From: Candidatus Caldarchaeum sp.
GTDB lineage: Archaea; Thermoproteota; Nitrososphaeria_A; Caldarchaeales; Caldarchaeaceae
Direction: 5' to 3'
NCBI GenBank assembly: GCA_038844785.1
Contig: JAWBRA010000001.1
Coordinates: forward strand, 39,931 to 103,930
DNA: 64,000 bases
Position 1 is the first letter of the stretch, and the number at the start of each line of letters is the position of its first letter. The notes under the pieces were generated by a model. It did not search any database, was not told the DNA's origin, and worked only from the letters and a program-made list of their open reading frames with translations. Shown here piece after piece: positions 17,758 to 63,645 of the stretch. Position numbers and translations under genes: made by a program.

Positions 17758-18603
17758 ATGAGGATAGGGTTAGCTTATGACGTGGTAAGGTTCGAGGAAA
17801 AGTCTCTGATACAAGCGGCAAACAACCTAGGATATACAGTAAAACCGATTCACGTAGTGGACCGTGAGTTCTGGCTTAACGAACCCAACGGATACGACAC
17901 GGACTTTATTGTCCAGAGATGCGTCAGCCTCAGCAGAGCCCTTGCCACAACCTCAATATTCGAAAGAGCCGGCTGCTTTGTAGTAAATAACTTGGACGTT
18001 TTACGTAACTCGGCCGATAAACTGGTAACCTCATGTCTTCTGGCCAAAAACGGAATACCCACGCCGGTTACAGCTGTTGCGTTCAAAAAGGAGACAGCCC
18101 TGTCTATAGCTAGGAAGATCGGCTTCCCCGTCGTTGTCAAACCCATTTCAGGCAGCTGGGGTAGGATGATCGCCAGAGCTTTCGACGAGCAATCGCTAGC
18201 CGACATTTTAGAGCTGCGTGAGAATATGCCCAACCCTCAGATGAAAATCCACTATCTGCAGGAGCATGTAGACAAGCCTGAGAGGGACATAAGGGCTTTC
18301 TACGTCTGGGGTGACGTGCCTGTAGCCATCTACAGGGTCAGCAAAAACTGGAAGACTAACACTGCGTTGGGCGGGAAGGCGCAGCCATGCACGGTTACCG
18401 ACGGGCTAAGGGAGCTAGTGGTGAAAGCTGGTGATGCTTTAGGGGGCGGGGTCCTCGGCATAGACATACTAGAATCGCCTGAGAAAGGTATGCTTGTAAA
18501 CGAGGTAAACGGCGTTGTGGAGTTCAGGAACACTGTTCTCGTCACAGGATATGATTTAGCGTCAAAGATAATAGCTGATACGGTAAAGGTAGTTCGTAGA
18601 TGA
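17758..18603 (+). CDS. lysX: Aminoadipate/glutamate--LysW ligase (RimK ATP-grasp)
   Basis: VRFEEK, KPISGSWGR, NWKTNTALGG, EVNGVVEFRNT. Confidence 0.92.
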   Translation: MRIGLAYDVVRFEEKSLIQAANNLGYTVKPIHVVDREFWLNEPNGYDTDFIVQRCVSLSRALATTSIFERAGCFVVNNLDVLRNSADKLVTSCLLAKNGIPTPVTAVAFKKETALSIARKIGFPVVVKPISGSWGRMIARAFDEQSLADILELRENMPNPQMKIHYLQEHVDKPERDIRAFYVWGDVPVAIYRVSKNWKTNTALGGKAQPCTVTDGLRELVVKAGDALGGGVLGIDILESPEKGMLVNEVNGVVEFRNTVLVTGYDLASKIIADTVKVVRR

Positions 18604-19796
18604 CTGTTAAGCTTTTACGGTTCTCTTCACCGCGGGGAATCAGGGTTGTAAAAGCCGAAGGGCAATACGTTTGGGATGAAACGGGCAGAAGATATCTTGA
18701 CTTCTACATGGGCTACGGCGCCGCCTTCCTAGGCTACAGGCATCCAAAGATAGTGGAGGCGTTAAAGGAGCAGATGACCAGATACATGACGATAACTCCG
18801 GCGTTCGACACAGACATTATGGACAGTTGCTTGGACAGGCTTGGGCGAATACTCCCCGCTCATCTCGAAAGAGTTTTCTTCCTCAACAGCGGGTCGGAAG
18901 CATGCGAGCTTGCTTTGAAGATAGCTAGAAAGGTTACTGGCAGGAAGAAGGTCCTAGCCTTCGTGAACAGTTTTCACGGGAGAACGATGGGCTCGCTTTC
19001 AGCCACGTGGAACCCGAAGTATCGTGAAGGGTTTGAACCATTTCCGTTTGAAACTATTTTCACACCATACAATAACGCTGAAGCCGTTGAGGAGAAACTT
19101 GGCGAAGATTTTGCTGCAGTCATATTCGAGCCTGTTCAGGGTGAAGGTGGAATAGTGCCGGCAACGGATGATTTCCTCAAAAGAGTTGAGAGAAAGTGTA
19201 GAGATGTCGGGGCTTTACTGATAGCCGACGAGGTTCAGTCAGGCTTCGGAAGGACCGGCCTTGTCTGGGCCCATCAAAAGGCGGGAATAAAGCCTGACAT
19301 GCTGACTGCCGCCAAGGCCATAGCAGGAGGTTTTCCAGCGAGCATAATCGCGGTTACTGAGGAAATCGCCTCTAAGCTTAAAGAAACAGACCATGGTTCA
19401 ACCTATGGAGGCAGCCCGCTGGCTTTGGCGGCTATAAAAGCGGCTGTCGAAGTGCTAATAGAAGAGGACGTTCCTTCCCAAGCCCATGAGAAGGGTGCAG
19501 CGATTGGAGAAATGATGTCCAAAGTCGTCGAAGAAAACCGAGAGCTCTTCAGAGGTCTCCGAAGGAGTGGCCTGATGATAGGTGTTGACATGCGGTCTCA
19601 ACCAGGTGATTTTATAAGGATGCTTCAGAAGAACGGGCTGATAGGCTTTAAAGCAGGTTTGACCGTCCTGAGGTTTCTTCCACCCTACCTCATAACGGAA
19701 GGGGATATGAAAACCGCGGTCGAAGCCATGGTTAAAACAATAGAAGACTATAGGGCTTTACACGGGAAAGCTGAACATTCTCAGAGCCTCGCGTAA
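18600..19796 (+). CDS. lysJ: [LysW]-semialdehyde transaminase (class III)
   Basis: NSGSEA, SFHGRTMG, EPVQGEGG, DEVQSGFGRTG, HGSTYGGSPL. Confidence 0.92.
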   Translation: MTVKLLRFSSPRGIRVVKAEGQYVWDETGRRYLDFYMGYGAAFLGYRHPKIVEALKEQMTRYMTITPAFDTDIMDSCLDRLGRILPAHLERVFFLNSGSEACELALKIARKVTGRKKVLAFVNSFHGRTMGSLSATWNPKYREGFEPFPFETIFTPYNNAEAVEEKLGEDFAAVIFEPVQGEGGIVPATDDFLKRVERKCRDVGALLIADEVQSGFGRTGLVWAHQKAGIKPDMLTAAKAIAGGFPASIIAVTEEIASKLKETDHGSTYGGSPLALAAIKAAVEVLIEEDVPSQAHEKGAAIGEMMSKVVEENRELFRGLRRSGLMIGVDMRSQPGDFIRMLQKNGLIGFKAGLTVLRFLPPYLITEGDMKTAVEAMVKTIEDYRALHGKAEHSQSLA

Positions 19797-21107
19797 CAAG
19801 GGTCTCCCAGCCTCACATGCTTCAAACCAAACCCTGTAAAACGGTTTACCTACTTTGATGAGCTTTGAAAGGTCTGTCGGGCTTGAGCTCAGGATTGCGT
19901 CGCAATCGACATAGGCCAAGGTTTTCTCCAAATCTTTAAGCTGTTCAGAAGTATATCCCATCGCCGGCACTACAGGACCTATGTGAGGATACTGGACATA
20001 GATGTCTCTTATTATTCCAGTTGAGTATGGTTTTGGGTCTACGACCACGGCTCCAGCTGAGACGGCCGCTTCATAGGCTGCTCCGTAAGCCATTCCTCCG
20101 TGAGTCAGCGAAGGCGCGTCCTCCACAACGCAGACCCTCAAACCTTTAAGCTCTTGCATTTTTTCAACATGTATCCTAGACGCGATTTTAGCGATGATAG
20201 CCTTCGGGTTTATGGTGGATAGCTTGGATACGAGCTTGTCCACGTTTTCAGGCGCTGCTCTGTCGGTCTTGTTAACAACCATCACGTCTGCCAAAAGAAG
20301 GTTTATCTCACCCGGATAAGTGCTTGTCTCAAGCCCAGGACGCGTAGCGTCTACAACGGTAATGTGTAGGTCTGGTTTGAAGAAGGGCAGATCGTTGTTT
20401 CCACCGTCCCATAGAATTACGTCCGCTTCCTGTTCCGCCGCCTTTAAAACAGCTTCATAGTCAACCCCTGCGTATACCACAGTCCCCTCACGAAGATGCG
20501 GCTCAAACTCCTCCCTCTCCTCAACGGTGCAGTCGTACCTGTCCATGTCCTCAAGCCTCTCAAACCTTTGAACAACCTGTCTTTCCAAAACGCCGTAAGG
20601 CATGGGATGGCGTACTACAACCGTGTTGACACCTGCTTGACGCAAGAGCCTCACAACATATCTTGATACTGTGCTTTTTCCCGCGCCCGTTTTTGTGGCC
20701 GTAACCGCGACAACTTTCTTGGAGCTGGTCAGCATAGTTGACTGCGGCCCCAGCAGCATGAAGTCAGCGCCCAAGGACATGGCCAGCGAGGCTTTGTGCA
20801 TCACTTCCTCATGGGTTACGTCGCTATAGGCGAAAACCACAAGCTGTATCTTCTTCTCCTTAATCAGCCTAGGCAGCTCCGCCTCGTCGTAAATGGGTAT
20901 GCCTTCTGGATAGAGGGGGCCGGCCAAGCTGGGAGGGTAAACCCTCCCCGCAATCCCGGGTATTTGGGCGGCTGTGAAAGCCACCACCTCATACTCGCTC
21001 CTTCCCCTGAAAAAGACGTTAAAGTTGTGGAACTCGTGGAGCTCCTTTTACTCCGGAGCCCAGTCACGTCCCGCCGCTCCCATGATAAGCGTCCTAACCC
21101 TCTTCAT
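19758..21107 (-). CDS. Arginine synthetase ArcE-like / cDPGS-like P-loop protein, two exons (21107-21063 joined to 21032-19758; 439 aa spliced)
   Basis: Exon 1 is MKRVRTLIMGAAGRD and exon 2 begins FHNFNVFFRGRSEYEVVAFTAAQIP. Further motifs: TKTGAGKST, VRHPMPYG, EEREEFEPH, WDGGNND, EDAPSLTHGG, PAMGY. Confidence 0.85.
21033..21062 (-). other. 30-nt bulge-helix-bulge (BHB) intron in a protein-coding gene
   Basis: Minus-strand RNA GGA-CGUG-AC^U-GGGCUCC-GGAGUAAAA-GGAGCUC-CACG-AG^U-UCC has a 4-bp central helix, two 3-nt bulges and flanking helices. It contains an in-frame UAA, and removal restores GRDFHNFN. Confidence 0.88.
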
Positions 21108-21187
21108 GCTTGTAGAGGGTTAGCGGATGGGTAAAAACCTTGTCCAAAGACTTATAATCCAACAAAGTGGACGGATGACGAAAGCAG

Positions 21188-22270
21188 TTGGGCGAGCTAA
21201 AGGCCATTGAGGTTTACAGGGAGCCAGCCGTCTCGACATTGGTCCAGCTCCTCGAAGTCTACACACCGCCCGGAGAGGAAAGAAGGCTTGAAAGAACGTG
21301 GTTTAGAATCTGCGCAGACCTTCGGTATCATAGGGTTTGGCGCGACGAGCTTGGAAACTACTTTGCCTCCGTTGGGGATGGAGATAAAACGGTGATGCTC
21401 GTGAGCCACGTGGACACGGTTCCCGGCGAGCTGAGGGTTAGAGTTTCCGGCGGTAGAGTGTATGGCAGAGGAGCGGTTGACGCAAAAGGACCTTTATCGG
21501 CCATGCTTTTAGCAGGCAGTATTGTCGCAGATAGGCTGAAGAACTCGAGGCTTGTCGTGGCAGGGCTGGTGGACGAGGAGGGGATGGGCAGGGGCGCGAA
21601 AAAACTTGTCGAGGATGGAATATACGCTGACTCGATAGTGATAGGCGAGCCCACGGGCACGTATGGAATAGCTGTATCATACAGAGGAAGCATAAGCGTG
21701 AAAGTTATGGCGACCGCTAAGGGCGGCCACGCTTCAGCCCCATACATTGCCGAATCAGCTGTTGAGAAGCTGCTAAACCTCTGGAGGATGGTGAGCCAAG
21801 AGTTTGGCGGAACTAGGTATGAAGATATAACATCGGCTTTGACGACCATTCACGCAGGAGACTGGATAAGCCGGATACCTGACAGAGCCGAGGGAAGCAT
21901 TAACATAAGGTTTCCACACCCTTACACTTCCAAGCATATACTAGCAAAACTTGAGACGTTTGTAAAAAACAGCGGATGTTCAATGGAGATAGTTGACATA
22001 ACCGAACCTGTTGTCACAAGCGTCAACAACAGAACTGCGCGTGCAATGCAACGGGCTATGCTGAAGCTGAACTACAAACCACGAATAGTTAAGAAAACCG
22101 GAACAAGCGACATGAACACCTTAGCGTCTGTGACGAGAGACATAATTGCGTGCGGGCCCGGTGACTCTACTCTTGCACACACAGACTCCGAATACATAGA
22201 TATAAACGACATAATAACGGCTACAAGAATATACTCCGAGTTCGTCAAGGAGATTGACCTATTGCAGTAG
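21188..22270 (+). CDS. lysK: [LysW]-lysine/ornithine hydrolase (M20)
   Basis: SHVDTVPG, GRGAVDAKGPL, DEEG, IGEP, KTGTSDMN, GPGDSTLAHT. Confidence 0.92.
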   Translation: MGELKAIEVYREPAVSTLVQLLEVYTPPGEERRLERTWFRICADLRYHRVWRDELGNYFASVGDGDKTVMLVSHVDTVPGELRVRVSGGRVYGRGAVDAKGPLSAMLLAGSIVADRLKNSRLVVAGLVDEEGMGRGAKKLVEDGIYADSIVIGEPTGTYGIAVSYRGSISVKVMATAKGGHASAPYIAESAVEKLLNLWRMVSQEFGGTRYEDITSALTTIHAGDWISRIPDRAEGSINIRFPHPYTSKHILAKLETFVKNSGCSMEIVDITEPVVTSVNNRTARAMQRAMLKLNYKPRIVKKTGTSDMNTLASVTRDIIACGPGDSTLAHTDSEYIDINDIITATRIYSEFVKEIDLLQ

Positions 22271-23698
22271 CCTGCTCAAGCCTTTTTGAAAGTTTTCTCG
22301 CTCGCTGACAATAATCTCCCTTAATGTCTTTATATCTTCCAGCATTTTGCTGGATAACCTTGCAACATGACTGGGGTTGGCTGAGCCTTCAACGGCGTAT
22401 CTCTCCACCGTTTGGCCTGCATCCATGAGAGATAAAACATCCTCGACCCCGACACGGGCTTGAATGGATTCTTCTTCGAATATTCTTTGAAGAGAGAGCT
22501 CGTTAAGCTGATGAGATGCAACAAGTCTGCTAATCCTGCCAGCCACAGCATGGGCTTTTCTGAAACTTACACCGTGCCTTAAACTCAGATAGTTTGCCAC
22601 CTCTACGGCTGCCGTTGGCGGAGCGCATGAATACAGAGCCTTTTCACGGTTCACCTCTAATAGCTTCACCATTTTGTTGAGAAGGTTAAGGCTTGACTCA
22701 ACCTGATCTAATGCAGACCAAAGCTTAGGTGTTGTTTGCTGTAGGTCGAGGTTGTATCCGCTAGGCTGCCTTGAAAGGATTCCAGCCAATGAAGTAACTA
22801 ATCCAAGGACTTCCGCAGCCTTGGTCCTCATTATCTCGGCTACAACAGGGTTGCGTTTTTGAGGCATTATGCTGCTCGTAGCAGAGTATTCCTCCGGCAT
22901 CTTCAACAAGCCGAACTCCTCAGACGAATAGAGCACCATTTCTTCGGCGAATGAGGACAGGATGACCGCTATGATGAGAAGCTGCATCAAACAGTGGAGG
23001 AGAAAGTCACGTGAAGCCGTAGCTTCTAAAGCATTTCTGCTAATATCGCGAAAGCCTAGGAGCCGAGCCAAATAAACTCTGTCAAGAGGGACTGAAGTGC
23101 CTGCAACAGCCGCAGAACCTAGGGGACATTCTTCACAAGCCTCGATAACGTCTTTCAGCCTTGGAACAGTCTTGTAAAGCCTTATCGCATATGCTTGAAG
23201 TATGAATCCGAAGGTTGCCGGCGCAGCTCTCTGCAGATGCGTGTAGACGGGGAACAGGGTTGCCGACTCCTCAACGCTTCTCTTGAAGAGGGATTCGACG
23301 GTGTCCAGAAGCAGGATTATAAGGTTGTAGAGCCTCTGCTTAAGCTTAAGCTTAACCGCCGCCACAACAGCGTCGTTTCTGCTTTTACCCAACGCCAGCA
23401 TCTCGCCCACCTCCGGAACCTTCTGCGACAGCATGGACTCTATGTATATGTGGATGTCCTCAACATCTTCAGGGATTGTGACACCCGATTTTATGATTGA
23501 CGAGAGGAAGGCAACGGCCTTTTCGGCTGACTCCTTGTCCACCACACCCAGTTTCTCAAGAGCTCTGACATGGGCTATGTTCACGTAAACCGTTTCGTCT
23601 AGTATGGCGTGGTCGAAGGATGAGGAGGAAGTGTAGGCAGCCGCATCAACGTCCATCTTCTTTTTAAGAATCCCCTTACGATGTGGAGCTGTCTCCAT
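22259..23698 (-). CDS. argH: Argininosuccinate lyase
   Basis: KSRND, YTHLQRA, PLGSAAVAGTS, TSSIMPQKRNP, GYNLDLQ. Confidence 0.93.
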   Translation of the reverse strand: METAPHRKGILKKKMDVDAAAYTSSSSFDHAILDETVYVNIAHVRALEKLGVVDKESAEKAVAFLSSIIKSGVTIPEDVEDIHIYIESMLSQKVPEVGEMLALGKSRNDAVVAAVKLKLKQRLYNLIILLLDTVESLFKRSVEESATLFPVYTHLQRAAPATFGFILQAYAIRLYKTVPRLKDVIEACEECPLGSAAVAGTSVPLDRVYLARLLGFRDISRNALEATASRDFLLHCLMQLLIIAVILSSFAEEMVLYSSEEFGLLKMPEEYSATSSIMPQKRNPVVAEIMRTKAAEVLGLVTSLAGILSRQPSGYNLDLQQTTPKLWSALDQVESSLNLLNKMVKLLEVNREKALYSCAPPTAAVEVANYLSLRHGVSFRKAHAVAGRISRLVASHQLNELSLQRIFEEESIQARVGVEDVLSLMDAGQTVERYAVEGSANPSHVARLSSKMLEDIKTLREIIVSERENFQKGLSRLLQ

Positions 23699-23699
23699 G

Positions 23700-24905
23700 T
23701 TATTCCTGCTCTCTTAAAGCGCTGAGCCTTGTCTCCAAGCTCCAAAGCTTCGAAAACCCTTCGCCGGCCTTCTGGTCGAACACGCTTTCACGTGCGTAGG
23801 TTATATACTTAATTGAATAGAGAGGCTTTTCACCTCTTCTGCCCACAATCCTGGCCGAGCCTTTAAACAATCTCACCCGTACCTCGCCAGTAACACCTTG
23901 CTGCGAAACATCTATGAAAGCGTCAAGCGCCTTTCTCAACGGGTCCGCCCACAAACCGCTGTAAACCATTTCAGCCCATGCCGCGTCCACGTACTGCTTG
24001 AAAGCTTGCATACGCCTCCCTAGAAACATTTTTTCAAGGTCAGCGTGGGCGTTTATCAGCAGAAGCGCGGCTGGAAGCTCATAAACCTCACGTGACTTCA
24101 ATCCGACAACCCTGTCCTCGACATGGTCTACGATCCCGAAGCCGTGCTTGCCGCCTAAAACGTTCAACTCTTTTATTATTTCCATCAGATGCTTTCTTTG
24201 CCCGTTGAGCGAGACAGGAACCCCGTTTTCAAAACCTATCACAATCTCTTCAGCCTCGTCCGGAGTAAGCTCCAAGGGTTTCACAAGCTTAAACGCTTCG
24301 GCTGGTGGTTCTGTCCAGGGATCTTCCAGCTCAGCAGCCTCAATGGACCTGCCCCAAAGGTTTTCGTCTACGCTAAACCTGCTCTTCACAGGGTTTATGG
24401 GCAGGTTATGTTCAAGGGCATACTCTATCTCCTCATCTCTGCTCATGTTCCATTCTCTAACGGGTGCGATTATCTTGAGCTGTGGAGCTAGGTAGGAAAA
24501 CGTTGCGTCGAACCTGAGCTGGTCGTTTCCCTTCCCTGTACAGCCGTGCGCAACAGCATTGCATCTCTCCCTCAACGCAACTTTGACAACCTCCTCAGCA
24601 ATAAGAGGCCTGCTTATGGCAGAGGACAGCGGATAGCTTTTCTCATACAGCGCGTTTGCCTTGATAACCCGTGAGACAAACTCTTCCACGAACCTTTTCT
24701 TTGCGTCAATGTTGACATGTAGAACGGCGCCGCTTCTGTAGGCTTTTTCCTCAATCTCTTTGAAGTCCTCATCCTGGCCTACGTCAACAGTGACGGTCAC
24801 AACCTCGGCGTTGTATTTTTGGCTTATCCACTTTATCATAACCGTGGTGTCCAGGCCGCCGCTGTAGGCAAGAGCTACTTTCATTGGTACTGAAGTGTTT
24901 AACAC
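23700..24905 (-). CDS. argG: Argininosuccinate synthase
   Basis: LAYSGGLDTT, AHGCTGKGNDQLRF, SVDENLWGRS, GLKSREVYE. Real start may be ATG 24884. Confidence 0.96.
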   Translation of the reverse strand: MLNTSVPMKVALAYSGGLDTTVMIKWISQKYNAEVVTVTVDVGQDEDFKEIEEKAYRSGAVLHVNIDAKKRFVEEFVSRVIKANALYEKSYPLSSAISRPLIAEEVVKVALRERCNAVAHGCTGKGNDQLRFDATFSYLAPQLKIIAPVREWNMSRDEEIEYALEHNLPINPVKSRFSVDENLWGRSIEAAELEDPWTEPPAEAFKLVKPLELTPDEAEEIVIGFENGVPVSLNGQRKHLMEIIKELNVLGGKHGFGIVDHVEDRVVGLKSREVYELPAALLLINAHADLEKMFLGRRMQAFKQYVDAAWAEMVYSGLWADPLRKALDAFIDVSQQGVTGEVRVRLFKGSARIVGRRGEKPLYSIKYITYARESVFDQKAGEGFSKLWSLETRLSALREQE

Positions 24906-28707: not shown

Positions 28708-28741
28708 CGTCTAAATACATGGTTCATTACTGTTGTGAGGT

Positions 28742-28815
28742 GGGCCGGTGGTCTAGCCTGGTATGACGCCACCCTGACGCGGTGGAGGTCGGCGGTTCAA
28801 GTCCGCCCCGGCCCA
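28742..28815 (+). tRNA. tRNA-Val(GAC)
   Basis: Acceptor GGGCCGG/CCGGCCC, anticodon arm CCACC-CTGACGC-GGTGG, T-loop GGTTCAAGTCC; no intron, no CCA. Confidence 0.95.
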
Positions 28816-28880
28816 GTTGACAGCTCTATCGGTGTGCCGCGCAGTAAACTGGATTGCCGTCAGCCGTACCGGTTGACAAC

Positions 28881-49130: not shown

Positions 49131-49225
49131 GTTTTTTCTTTGTTAATGGGGGGCGCTGTGTTGGATGGGTTTCAGAATCCGTAATCCGTATGTTTAAAAA
49201 CTGTATCGAAATCATCACGGTGGAT

Positions 49226-49299
49226 AGCCCCGTCGTCTAGGTGGTTAAGGATGCAGGGCTCTGGACCCTGAGACGCCGGTTCAAATCCGGCCGGGGCTA
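49226..49299 (+). tRNA. tRNA-Gln(CTG)
   Basis: AGCCCCG/CGGGGCT acceptor, CAGGG-CTCTGGA-CCCTG anticodon arm, GGTTCAAATCC; TTTAAAAA box at 49193. Confidence 0.95.
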
Positions 49300-49513
49300 A
49301 TATCGCCAAAATACTAGGACTTCCATGAGGCTGGACAGGGCTTAGTGGTGGCGAGGGGGTGTGGCTCGATACCTCTTCATCTCCGATGTGTCTTCATTCC
49401 CATACACCTATAAACCCTTCTTCTAATGGATGTCCTAAGTAATACATTTATAAGCTTTCTATTTAACTGCCCAAGTTTTCCGACAGGCCTATGAGAGTGA
49501 GGATGGACGAGGA

Positions 49514-63571: not shown

Positions 63572-63645
63572 GGGCCGGTAGTTCAGCCTGGAAGAACAAC
63601 CGTTTTGCACACGGTAGGTCGAGGGTTCAAATCCCTCCCGGTCCA
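63572..63645 (+). tRNA. tRNA-Ala(TGC)
   Basis: GGGCCGG/CCGGTCC acceptor with G3:U70, ACCGT-TTTGCAC-ACGGT, GAGGG-TTCAAAT-CCCTC; TTTATATAA box at about 63544. Confidence 0.92.

Follow-up and report, generated by a model that had tools for sequence, protein, structure and literature searches.

How can a full-length protein be made from a gene in which a short insert with a stop codon splits the family motif? The question is raised by a gene on the minus strand of a 64,000-nucleotide (nt) stretch of DNA from Candidatus Caldarchaeum sp. (contig JAWBRA010000001.1, positions 39,931 to 103,930; hereafter the window). From the ATG at 21107-21105 to the stop at 19760-19758, the translated frame begins with M K R V R T L I M G A A G R D, continues through ten codons that include a TAA (21050-21048), and resumes with F H N F N. 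The family motif is split into GAAGRD and FHNFN by 30 nt at 21062-21033. Read without excision from the first ATG, the frame stops after 19 codons; excision of the 30 nt leaves 439 codons (449 residues minus 10). A preliminary description of the locus had given the same coordinates and frame, the in-frame TAA and a late start of the open reading frame (ORF) at 20987, all of which hold. With a probability of about 0.9, the 30 nt are a real and obligatory mRNA intron of the canonical bulge-helix-bulge (BHB) type, lying in the coding sequence of a protein that resembles the arginine synthetase ArcE.

The insert, its fold and its distribution

In the window, two 3-nt bulges on opposite strands flank a 4-bp helix, in the strict hBHBh' form (Table 1). 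Cuts past residue two and before residue three of each bulge, the rule taken from the available part of PMC2738675, are predicted to join GAC to TTC as Asp-Phe. The steps of the proposed mechanism are taken from established knowledge of the splicing endonuclease EndA and the ligase RtcB. The pre-mRNA would probably begin at or just before the exon-1 ATG. The exonic segments GGA-CGUG on the 5' side and UCC on the 3' side would pair both among themselves and with the intron's 3' end, forming two 3-nt bulges around a 4-bp helix. EndA, here of the two-subunit type, would cut past the second nucleotide of each bulge, and RtcB would join the exons and probably circularise the intron. The Asp-Phe junction between GAAGRD and FHNFN would be restored, and with it the 439-codon frame. 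This fold, the cuts, the junction and the 439-aa product had all been put forward in the preliminary description, and they are now backed by conservation, covariation and constraint on synonymous sites.

The insert has been found far beyond the window. A protein search of 41 related genomes, the window's own included, gave a match in 27. The same codon junction is interrupted in 15 of 15 orthologues from two genera of one family (g1 and g3), namely 13 genomes of the window's genus, counting the window, and both genomes of the second. Their inserts measure 23, 24, 25, 26, 27 or 30 nt and differ in their internal stops (TAA, TGA, TAG). GAAGRDFHNFN is uninterrupted in 10 relatives that belong to a third genus of the family or to other families within the order. 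The orthologues are 64-95% identical and have kept open frames. A pattern scan of the order recovered the insert in 14 of 76 genomes, all in the same two genera; the fifteenth carrier has Leu instead of Met before the motif and was missed by the pattern.

A strict pattern, consisting of the family motif with an 11-41-nt gap, was then applied to one genome per species from 185,579 prokaryotic species, and yielded 44 loci, all archaeal by title. A relaxed pattern added eight genuine loci, seven labelled Micrarchaeota and one a duplicate of an earlier locus. With the window included and the duplicate removed, this makes 53 loci; their inserts have 51 distinct sequences, and the genomes bear 12 NCBI phylum labels: Nitrososphaerota, Thermoproteota, Bathyarchaeota, Thermoplasmatota, Methanobacteriota, Aenigmatarchaeota, Nanobdellota, Nanohalarchaeota, Micrarchaeota and three Asgard labels. 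The scope of the intron had been underestimated in the preliminary description; it is no oddity of a single lineage. Because both scans need the exact protein motif, carriers are undercounted even here. Without a gap, the motif occurs in the same collection at no fewer than 120 loci and, among the matches listed, 97 are bacterial, 22 archaeal and one unassigned. As judged from these sequences, the gene family appears to be mostly bacterial and the insert to be confined to Archaea. These counts are given without a statistical test, because related genomes are not independent samples.

Several candidates were discarded on the way. An apparent bacterial carrier (L197) proved to be an artefact of the regular expression, and its gene is uninterrupted. 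Five loci from the relaxed pattern (L236, L237, L238, L246 and L247; four bacterial, one archaeal) form one to three of the four central pairs and are uninterrupted homologues or unrelated ORFs. The only bacterial matches of the relaxed pattern lack a BHB.

Over the 53 loci, the inserts measure 14-37 nt. In 41 of the loci the length is not a multiple of three, and the other 12 inserts all hold an in-frame stop. The insert cannot be read through at any of the 53 loci, each of which has either a shifted or a stopped frame. The preliminary description had deduced obligatory splicing from the single TAA of the window; in silico, this deduction can be extended to the whole set. Ribosomes might instead pass over the insert by programmed bypassing, as in gene 60 of phage T4, or by frameshifting. 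Many inserts do have a stop soon after the Asp codon and a stem-loop in the gap, and their last codon often starts with GA. However, the take-off codon equals the landing codon at only 2 of the 53 loci, and the landing codon is GAY at 5. Divided by three, the gap lengths leave every possible remainder, so that no single frameshift rule can hold, and the features that are conserved are those of an EndA substrate. The insert is also restricted to Archaea, although bacterial homologues are the more numerous among the matches listed. Bypassing or frameshifting is extremely unlikely.

The conserved features are of several kinds. The central helix has four of four pairs, with the 3-nt bulges in register (3-4-3 geometry), at all 53 loci, and the outer helix has at least 3 bp at 52; on alignment A1, 100% of the central-helix cells are paired. 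The inner helix pairs in 91.2% of its cells across the 53 carriers, and each of the 6 pairs counted shows changes on both sides; beside the bulge, the inner helix of a few very short introns has just 0-2 contiguous pairs. On the alignment used for covariation (46 sequences, 44 distinct rows, 559 cells), pairs make up 95.9% of the cells, where shuffles have 74.8%, and covariation scores 0.523, where they have 0.133; neither value is reached by any of 500 shuffles. When the 3' partners were slid by 1-3 columns as a control, 31-59% of the cells paired and the scores were 0.069-0.132. An alignment of orthologues, suggested at the outset as a check, has provided both presence and absence of the intron and the compensatory changes in it.

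Part of the covariation involves the codons of exon 1. At the third base of the Arg codon, the pair is U-A in 16 cases, G-C in 13, C-G in 11, A-U in two and U-G in two; at the first base, C-G becomes A-U in five AGR cases. The intron strand follows the Arg codons CGU, CGC, CGG, AGG and AGA, and hence tracks synonymous choice in the exon. In the outer helix, the Gly codon is GGA in 43 of 44 intron-bearing genes, compared with 8 of 22 uninterrupted archaeal and 23 of 97 bacterial genes, and the Phe codon is TTC in 44 of 44, compared with 13 of 22 and 60 of 97 (uninterrupted genes being counted among the matches listed). Where the intron is present, the synonymous sites of the exon that lie in the outer helix are thus frozen.

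A decaying gene, or an assembly artefact of 30 nt, would also place an in-frame stop near the 5' end, and the carriers are all metagenome bins. The insert was nevertheless assembled independently in 53 genomes, with 51 different sequences, which counters an artefact. Exon 2, of 424 codons, is intact and has no further lesions. The gene is the only copy in the window's genome (one match in the protein search), it is transcribed, and its orthologues have open frames. Both possibilities deserve next to no credit.

The host protein and its setting

What is lost if the insert stays in place can be judged from the protein family. The motif G-A-A-G-R-D-F-H-x-F-N is invariant in 36 of 36 aligned full-length homologues, and a database search with a query devoid of it brought up 93 homologues of 432 aa or more, 90 of which contain it. 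In the AlphaFold model of an uninterrupted relative of the same family (437 aa, pLDDT 91.6), the motif covers strand 1 (residues 3-9), a Gly-rich loop and the first part of helix 1 (residues 13-22). The intron junction separates residue 14 from residue 15, just past strand 1 and where helix 1 starts. On this model, the ORF from GTG 20987 would correspond to residue 31 onward and would contain none of these three elements.

This bears on the possibility that the hairpin is never excised and acts as a regulatory or terminator-like element after a short leader peptide, with the enzyme being made from an internal start downstream. Gene finders and public annotation do call shorter proteins that start after or inside the insert. 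The Caldarchaeum orthologues in the databases (P0002-P0022) have 403-430 aa and their intron is unannotated; some start downstream of it and others inside it, e.g., P0008-P0010, P0012 and P0022. Moreover, no spliced read was seen in metatranscriptome run X3 (see below), whose reads miss the junction. The presumed leader is, however, the first half of an invariant motif, and the insert lies exactly between the two halves at 53 of 53 loci. The shortened product would be deprived of the structural elements just named, and neither the 3-4-3 geometry nor the covariation between exon and intron is needed by a terminator or an attenuator. The starts themselves are not conserved: they vary between GTG, TTG and ATG, lie in different places, and some are within the intron. 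An internal start is therefore a very unlikely explanation, and excision of the insert as a BHB intron is preferred.

The identity of the protein has to be pieced together from several sources. Pfam gives a partial match to the cobW/HypB/UreG nucleotide-binding family alone, and a search of NCBIfam found no family for it. A sequence search of the PDB returned cyclic 2,3-diphosphoglycerate synthetase (cDPGS) alone, as a local match over query residues 220-333 (about 110 residues, E 2.6e-10), with two other chains at E 2e-4. Foldseek, run with the model of the relative, ranked cDPGS (E 3e-18, 16% identity) and LpxK (E 2e-8) best. Close homology to the solved cDPGS over the full length was not found, the sequence match being only local and the identity in structural alignment 14-16%. 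Orthologues have been deposited as GTPase, GTP-binding protein, cDPGS or 'hypothetical, partial', and the protein of the window is 54% identical to a homologue from a Desulfosarcina genome. According to the available text of PMC11032458, the arginine synthetase ArcE (TK2200) was annotated as a hypothetical protein or putative GTPase, is weakly similar to cDPGS, and is widespread in archaea and bacteria, including Desulfosarcina. The window protein fits this profile in its GTPase naming, its weak similarity to cDPGS and its P-loop kinase fold.

The gene neighbourhood is an arginine/lysine-type biosynthesis cluster extending over 17758-24905 of the window (Table 1). By annotation history, fold and neighbourhood, the protein is likely to be an ArcE-like P-loop enzyme, in keeping with the name proposed in the preliminary description.

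The TATA-like box TTTTTA, 25-30 nt upstream of the exon-1 ATG, suggests by its position that the mRNA is leaderless or near-leaderless and starts with exon 1. Among the window and 14 orthologue loci, an automatic scan located a T/A-rich box with its start at -28 to -30 in 7 of the 15 sequences, and inspection by eye added more.

Table 1. Coordinates of the predicted intron, of the arcE-like gene and its neighbours, and of one copy of the 25-nt element described in the next section (window positions unless a contig is named).
Feature	Position	Strand	Basis or remark
Putative TATA-like box TTTTTA	21132..21137	-	centred about 27 nt (25-30 nt) upstream of exon-1 ATG
Exon 1, 15 codons from M to GAAGRD, Asp codon GAC last	21063..21107	-	sequence and orthologues
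Outer helix, 5' strand GGA (Gly codon)	21069..21071	-	pairs with UCC 21031-21029
Central 4-bp helix, 5' strand CGUG (Arg codon and G of Asp codon), exonic	21065..21068	-	pairs with CACG
Bulge 1, ACU	21062..21064	-	predicted 5' cut between 21063 and 21062
Predicted intron, 30 nt, in-frame TAA 21050-21048	21033..21062	-	sequence, folding
Inner helix, 7 bp, one G-U	21061-21055 with 21045-21039	-	sequence, folding
Loop, 9 nt	21054-21046	-	sequence, folding
Central helix, 3' strand CACG, intronic	21035..21038	-	alignment pairing
Bulge 2, AGU	21032..21034	-	predicted 3' cut between 21033 and 21032
Outer helix, 3' strand UCC (last two bases of Phe TTC and C of His codon)	21029..21031	-	alignment pairing
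Exon 2, FHNFN to stop, 424 codons and TAA	19758..21032	-	frame translation
Gene-finder ORF, 409 aa from GTG 20987, N-terminally truncated call	19758..20987	-	mechanical ORF list
LysX/ArgX-type ATP-grasp gene	17758-18603	+	neighbourhood
Class-III aminotransferase	18600-19796	+	3' end overlaps that of the arcE-like gene by 39 nt, convergent
M20 peptidase	21188-22270	+	neighbourhood
Argininosuccinate lyase	22259-23698	-	neighbourhood
Argininosuccinate synthase	23700-24905	-	neighbourhood
25-nt element	G000 contig C12 40630-40654 (= L248 1631-1655)	-	outside window

Splicing machinery, transcripts and a genome-wide scan

The enzymes that such an intron would need are encoded in the same genome. 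It has two ORFs with an EndA domain (184 and 202 codons, with PF01974 matches of 99 and 56 bits) and an RtcB (PF01139, 569 bits). For a congener genome, a heterotetrameric endonuclease and 13 intron-bearing tRNAs are described in the available text of PMC3082918, and the enzymes found here fit this. The geometry, the conservation and the enzymes are directly visible in the sequences, whereas cutting, ligation and circularisation are predicted. Within the window, Rfam finds three tRNAs only, and these genes, Val-GAC (28741-28816), Gln-CTG (49225-49300) and Ala-TGC (63572-63645), have no intron according to ARAGORN and Rfam.

Transcription was examined in four metatranscriptomes of the same study, which were compared with positions 18500-22500; about 5% of run X3 was read. 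X3 contributed 88 reads, 81 of them at 99% identity or more, while X1, X2 and X4 contributed 0. The mate orientation in X3 reveals minus-strand RNA over 19974-21045 at a depth of 0.5-2.5, with neighbouring plus-strand genes at 3-11. The gene body is transcribed from the minus strand. At window position 22045, G is found in four of five X3 reads and A in the window, probably a strain difference.

Several points weigh against the conclusion that the insert is an obligatory BHB intron in an arcE gene. Neither a spliced read nor a circular intron or junction peptide has been seen; X3 has no coverage at all over 21046-21179 and shows no joints, which leaves the junction unsampled. All 53 loci come from metagenome bins, and there is no cultured carrier. 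Exon 1 has just 15 codons on an mRNA that is probably leaderless, and ribosomes could compete with the folding of the BHB. The identity of the protein with the characterised ArcE (TK2200) is no more than likely. Folding is ambiguous as well. The minimum free energy structure of the 43-nt motif folded alone is the exact BHB, at -16.2 kcal/mol. In a 66-nt context, a slipped register is favoured, at -24.2 as against -17.6 for the BHB, a difference of 6.6 kcal/mol. The folding z-score of this context is -2.66, and 3 of 200 shuffles fold equally well. Energy by itself is insufficient to settle the BHB, and it is the comparison between carriers that points to more than chance.

A scan of the whole genome for strict BHB motifs with spacings of 11-120 nt returned 1119 motifs, 15 of them with a helix quality equal to that of the arcE motif. 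The first version of the ORF filter was loose and gave 148 matches, mostly by chance; a stricter filter left 30. The motifs that remained besides the arcE one were rejected, as they lie at gene junctions or imply implausible peptides. The arcE site is the sole convincing case of a canonical motif whose removal repairs a frame. A search of the genome for further copies or relatives of the intron found none; its best match elsewhere by blastn-short is 18 nt long (E 0.16).

The preliminary description had suggested that other apparently truncated genes of this lineage may hide similar introns, and this holds in part. The strict scan offers no second canonical case, but a relaxed BHB-like element of 25 nt was met in a multi-copy family. 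This gene family of the same genome is probably mobile. It has no Pfam match and 25 translated matches, occurs several times per relative genome, and is often situated at contig ends. Twelve copies have an almost invariant 25-nt element just before the conserved body of the ORF. Besides the copy on contig C12 listed in Table 1, the element occurs on C1, C3, C6, C9, C11, C14, C24, C44, C46, C53 and C56, and none lies in the window. As a relaxed BHB, it would comprise a 4-bp helix, two 3-nt bulges, a 5-bp inner helix and a weak outer helix. With its excision the reading frame moves by one, and in 8 of the 12 copies an upstream start is thereby joined to a long ORF, of up to 288 codons in copies whose contig extends far enough. 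Three copies have an ATG preceded by a Shine-Dalgarno sequence and a mini-exon of five or six codons (e.g., M-T-D-I-P-K); the other 4 of the 12 have no in-frame start. A +1 ribosomal frameshift on the A-run is the rival explanation to splicing for this element.

History of the intron and its relation to known systems

The patchy distribution of the arcE intron raises the question of how it came to be shared. A FastTree tree was built from 105 exon-2 proteins, comprising 42 carriers, 33 uninterrupted archaeal sequences and 30 bacterial ones drawn at random from 88 rows, after removal of duplicates and of loci without an exon 2 of 300 codons. The tree calls for 13 changes of the intron label, and well-supported branches force 5 or more of them. 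A quick IQ-TREE tree of 61 hand-picked rows requires 12 changes, with 8 or more forced. Constraining the carriers to one group, which was named after the first tree had been seen, cost 566 log-likelihood units (p-AU 0.002). By these trees the intron has been gained and/or lost many times, gain and loss not being separable on them. Some carrier clades are placed among bacterial sequences with weak support, a position that would be consistent with the gene having been acquired first and an intron gained at the same site afterwards.

A pair of DPANN-type bins was considered as a recent and clean gain or loss. The proteins of L037 and L040 are 94% identical, and one gene has an 18-nt intron that the other lacks. 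From roughly +60 nt of exon 2 onward, their DNA agrees at about 95%; upstream of this point, exon 1 and the flank included, it is unrelated. The case was rejected, since the unrelated upstream DNA implies a recombination breakpoint beside the intron site or a chimeric bin.

To our knowledge, cbf5, in two orders of Crenarchaeota, has since 2002 been the one coding sequence of archaea known to depend on splicing. In the available text of PMC2738675, the cbf5 pre-mRNA intron is assigned to Desulfurococcales and Sulfolobales and its splicing was shown experimentally. A 2020 paper (PMC7714728) names, in the part available, just cbf5 besides its own case, and a 2023 review (PMC10485636), likewise available in part, counts two EndA-spliced mRNAs in all and expects more. 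The full-text literature, with subscription journals outside the scope and some papers accessible only in part, contained only cbf5 as a BHB intron in a coding sequence and the HVO_1309 intron in a 5' untranslated region; no prior report of the arcE intron turned up in it. The word 'intron' is absent from the accessible text of the two ArcE papers.

As far as the accessible sources go, the cbf5 and arcE introns have much in common. Both are short, of the BHB type and located in a coding sequence, they share the predicted cuts, and their removal is needed for a functional protein. Both also display lineage-specific gain and loss and have been mis-annotated by gene finders. The differences concern the host, the motif and the range. 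Cbf5 is an RNA pseudouridine synthase, whereas the arcE-like gene encodes a metabolic P-loop enzyme. The cbf5 motifs are mostly unconventional (relaxed) and need a two-subunit endonuclease, whereas the arcE intron has the strict 3-4-3 form with both flanking helices. While the cbf5 introns are found in two crenarchaeal orders, the arcE intron occurs under 12 phylum labels that include DPANN, Thermoplasmatota, Methanosarcinales and Asgard ones. Splicing of cbf5 has been demonstrated by experiment, and the arcE intron is known here from sequence alone. In the window's genome, the cbf5/TruB_N homologue (G000 contig C3 29072-29368, L055/L056) has a 285-codon open frame without stops, and no crenarchaeal-type intron was found in the matched part, from profile position 16.

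The HVO_1309 intron of Haloferax volcanii is, like that of arcE, a short (46 nt) mRNA substrate of the tRNA-splicing endonuclease (accessible parts of PMC7714728 and PMC10485636). According to the same parts of these sources, it differs from the arcE intron in that it lies in an untranslated leader, leaves the frame uninterrupted, is restricted to haloarchaea, was cut in vitro and has been found as circular RNA. The BHB introns of archaeal tRNA and rRNA have a motif geometry identical to that of the arcE intron, and would share with it the enzymes EndA and RtcB. Introns at position 37/38 of tRNAs even have the same order of elements: outer helix, exonic central strand, bulge, inner helix, loop, inner helix, intronic central strand, bulge and, finally, outer helix. 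In contrast to these RNAs, the host RNA of the arcE intron is translated, and half of the motif consists of codons in which protein and RNA constraints overlap.

Outside Archaea, IRE1 and tRNA ligase remove a very short, stem-loop-flanked intron from HAC1/XBP1 mRNA, a stress-regulated reaction that changes the encoded protein. HAC1/XBP1 is named as a case of spliceosome-independent splicing in the available part of PMC13149111. The pathway of endonuclease plus ligase is alike, but IRE1 and the recognition motif differ, and regulation is only a hypothesis for arcE.

That hypothesis goes back to the preliminary description, which had the tRNA-splicing machinery gate the enzyme; this regulatory role is speculative. 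Its rival, which touches the gating only and leaves splicing itself in place, is a neutral or selfish intron that is spliced and persists since the exon supplies half a BHB. The patchy presence with 12-13 changes on the protein trees, the lack of sequence conservation between clades, and the single-copy state, without anything similar in the rest of the genome, are all in line with neutrality. The intron has, on the other hand, been kept long enough for synonymous sites of the exon to become fixed, and one genus has it in each of its 13 sampled species; neither observation excludes neutrality. The neutral persistent intron is somewhat favoured overall, and it is rated more likely than a regulatory switch. 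A broader proposal would be that the arcE intron repeatedly re-enters or is transferred into one codon junction, acts as an EndA/RtcB-dependent switch for full-length ArcE and, together with the 25-nt element, represents a general and overlooked layer of splicing; this is improbable on present evidence. If it were true, the full-length enzyme would be made only as far as the capacity of EndA and RtcB permits, the switch on ArcE, an ATP-yielding enzyme of arginine catabolism, would be an archaeal counterpart of the unconventional splicing of HAC1/XBP1, and mRNA splicing by endonuclease and ligase would be a general, overlooked layer of archaeal gene expression, Asgard lineages included.

The arcE intron would be the first BHB intron in the gene of a metabolic enzyme, the first in an mRNA coding sequence to have the strict canonical motif, and the one with by far the widest distribution. 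The gene is truncated or mis-started by gene callers in every carrier examined; therefore, metabolic reconstructions of the carrier lineages hold a damaged or misnamed arcE. With 51 intron sequences at one site and 12-13 events of gain or loss, the family provides a natural system for the gain, loss and retention of BHB introns. It is also a concrete substrate, easy to assay, on which the possible regulation of mRNA splicing in archaea could be addressed.

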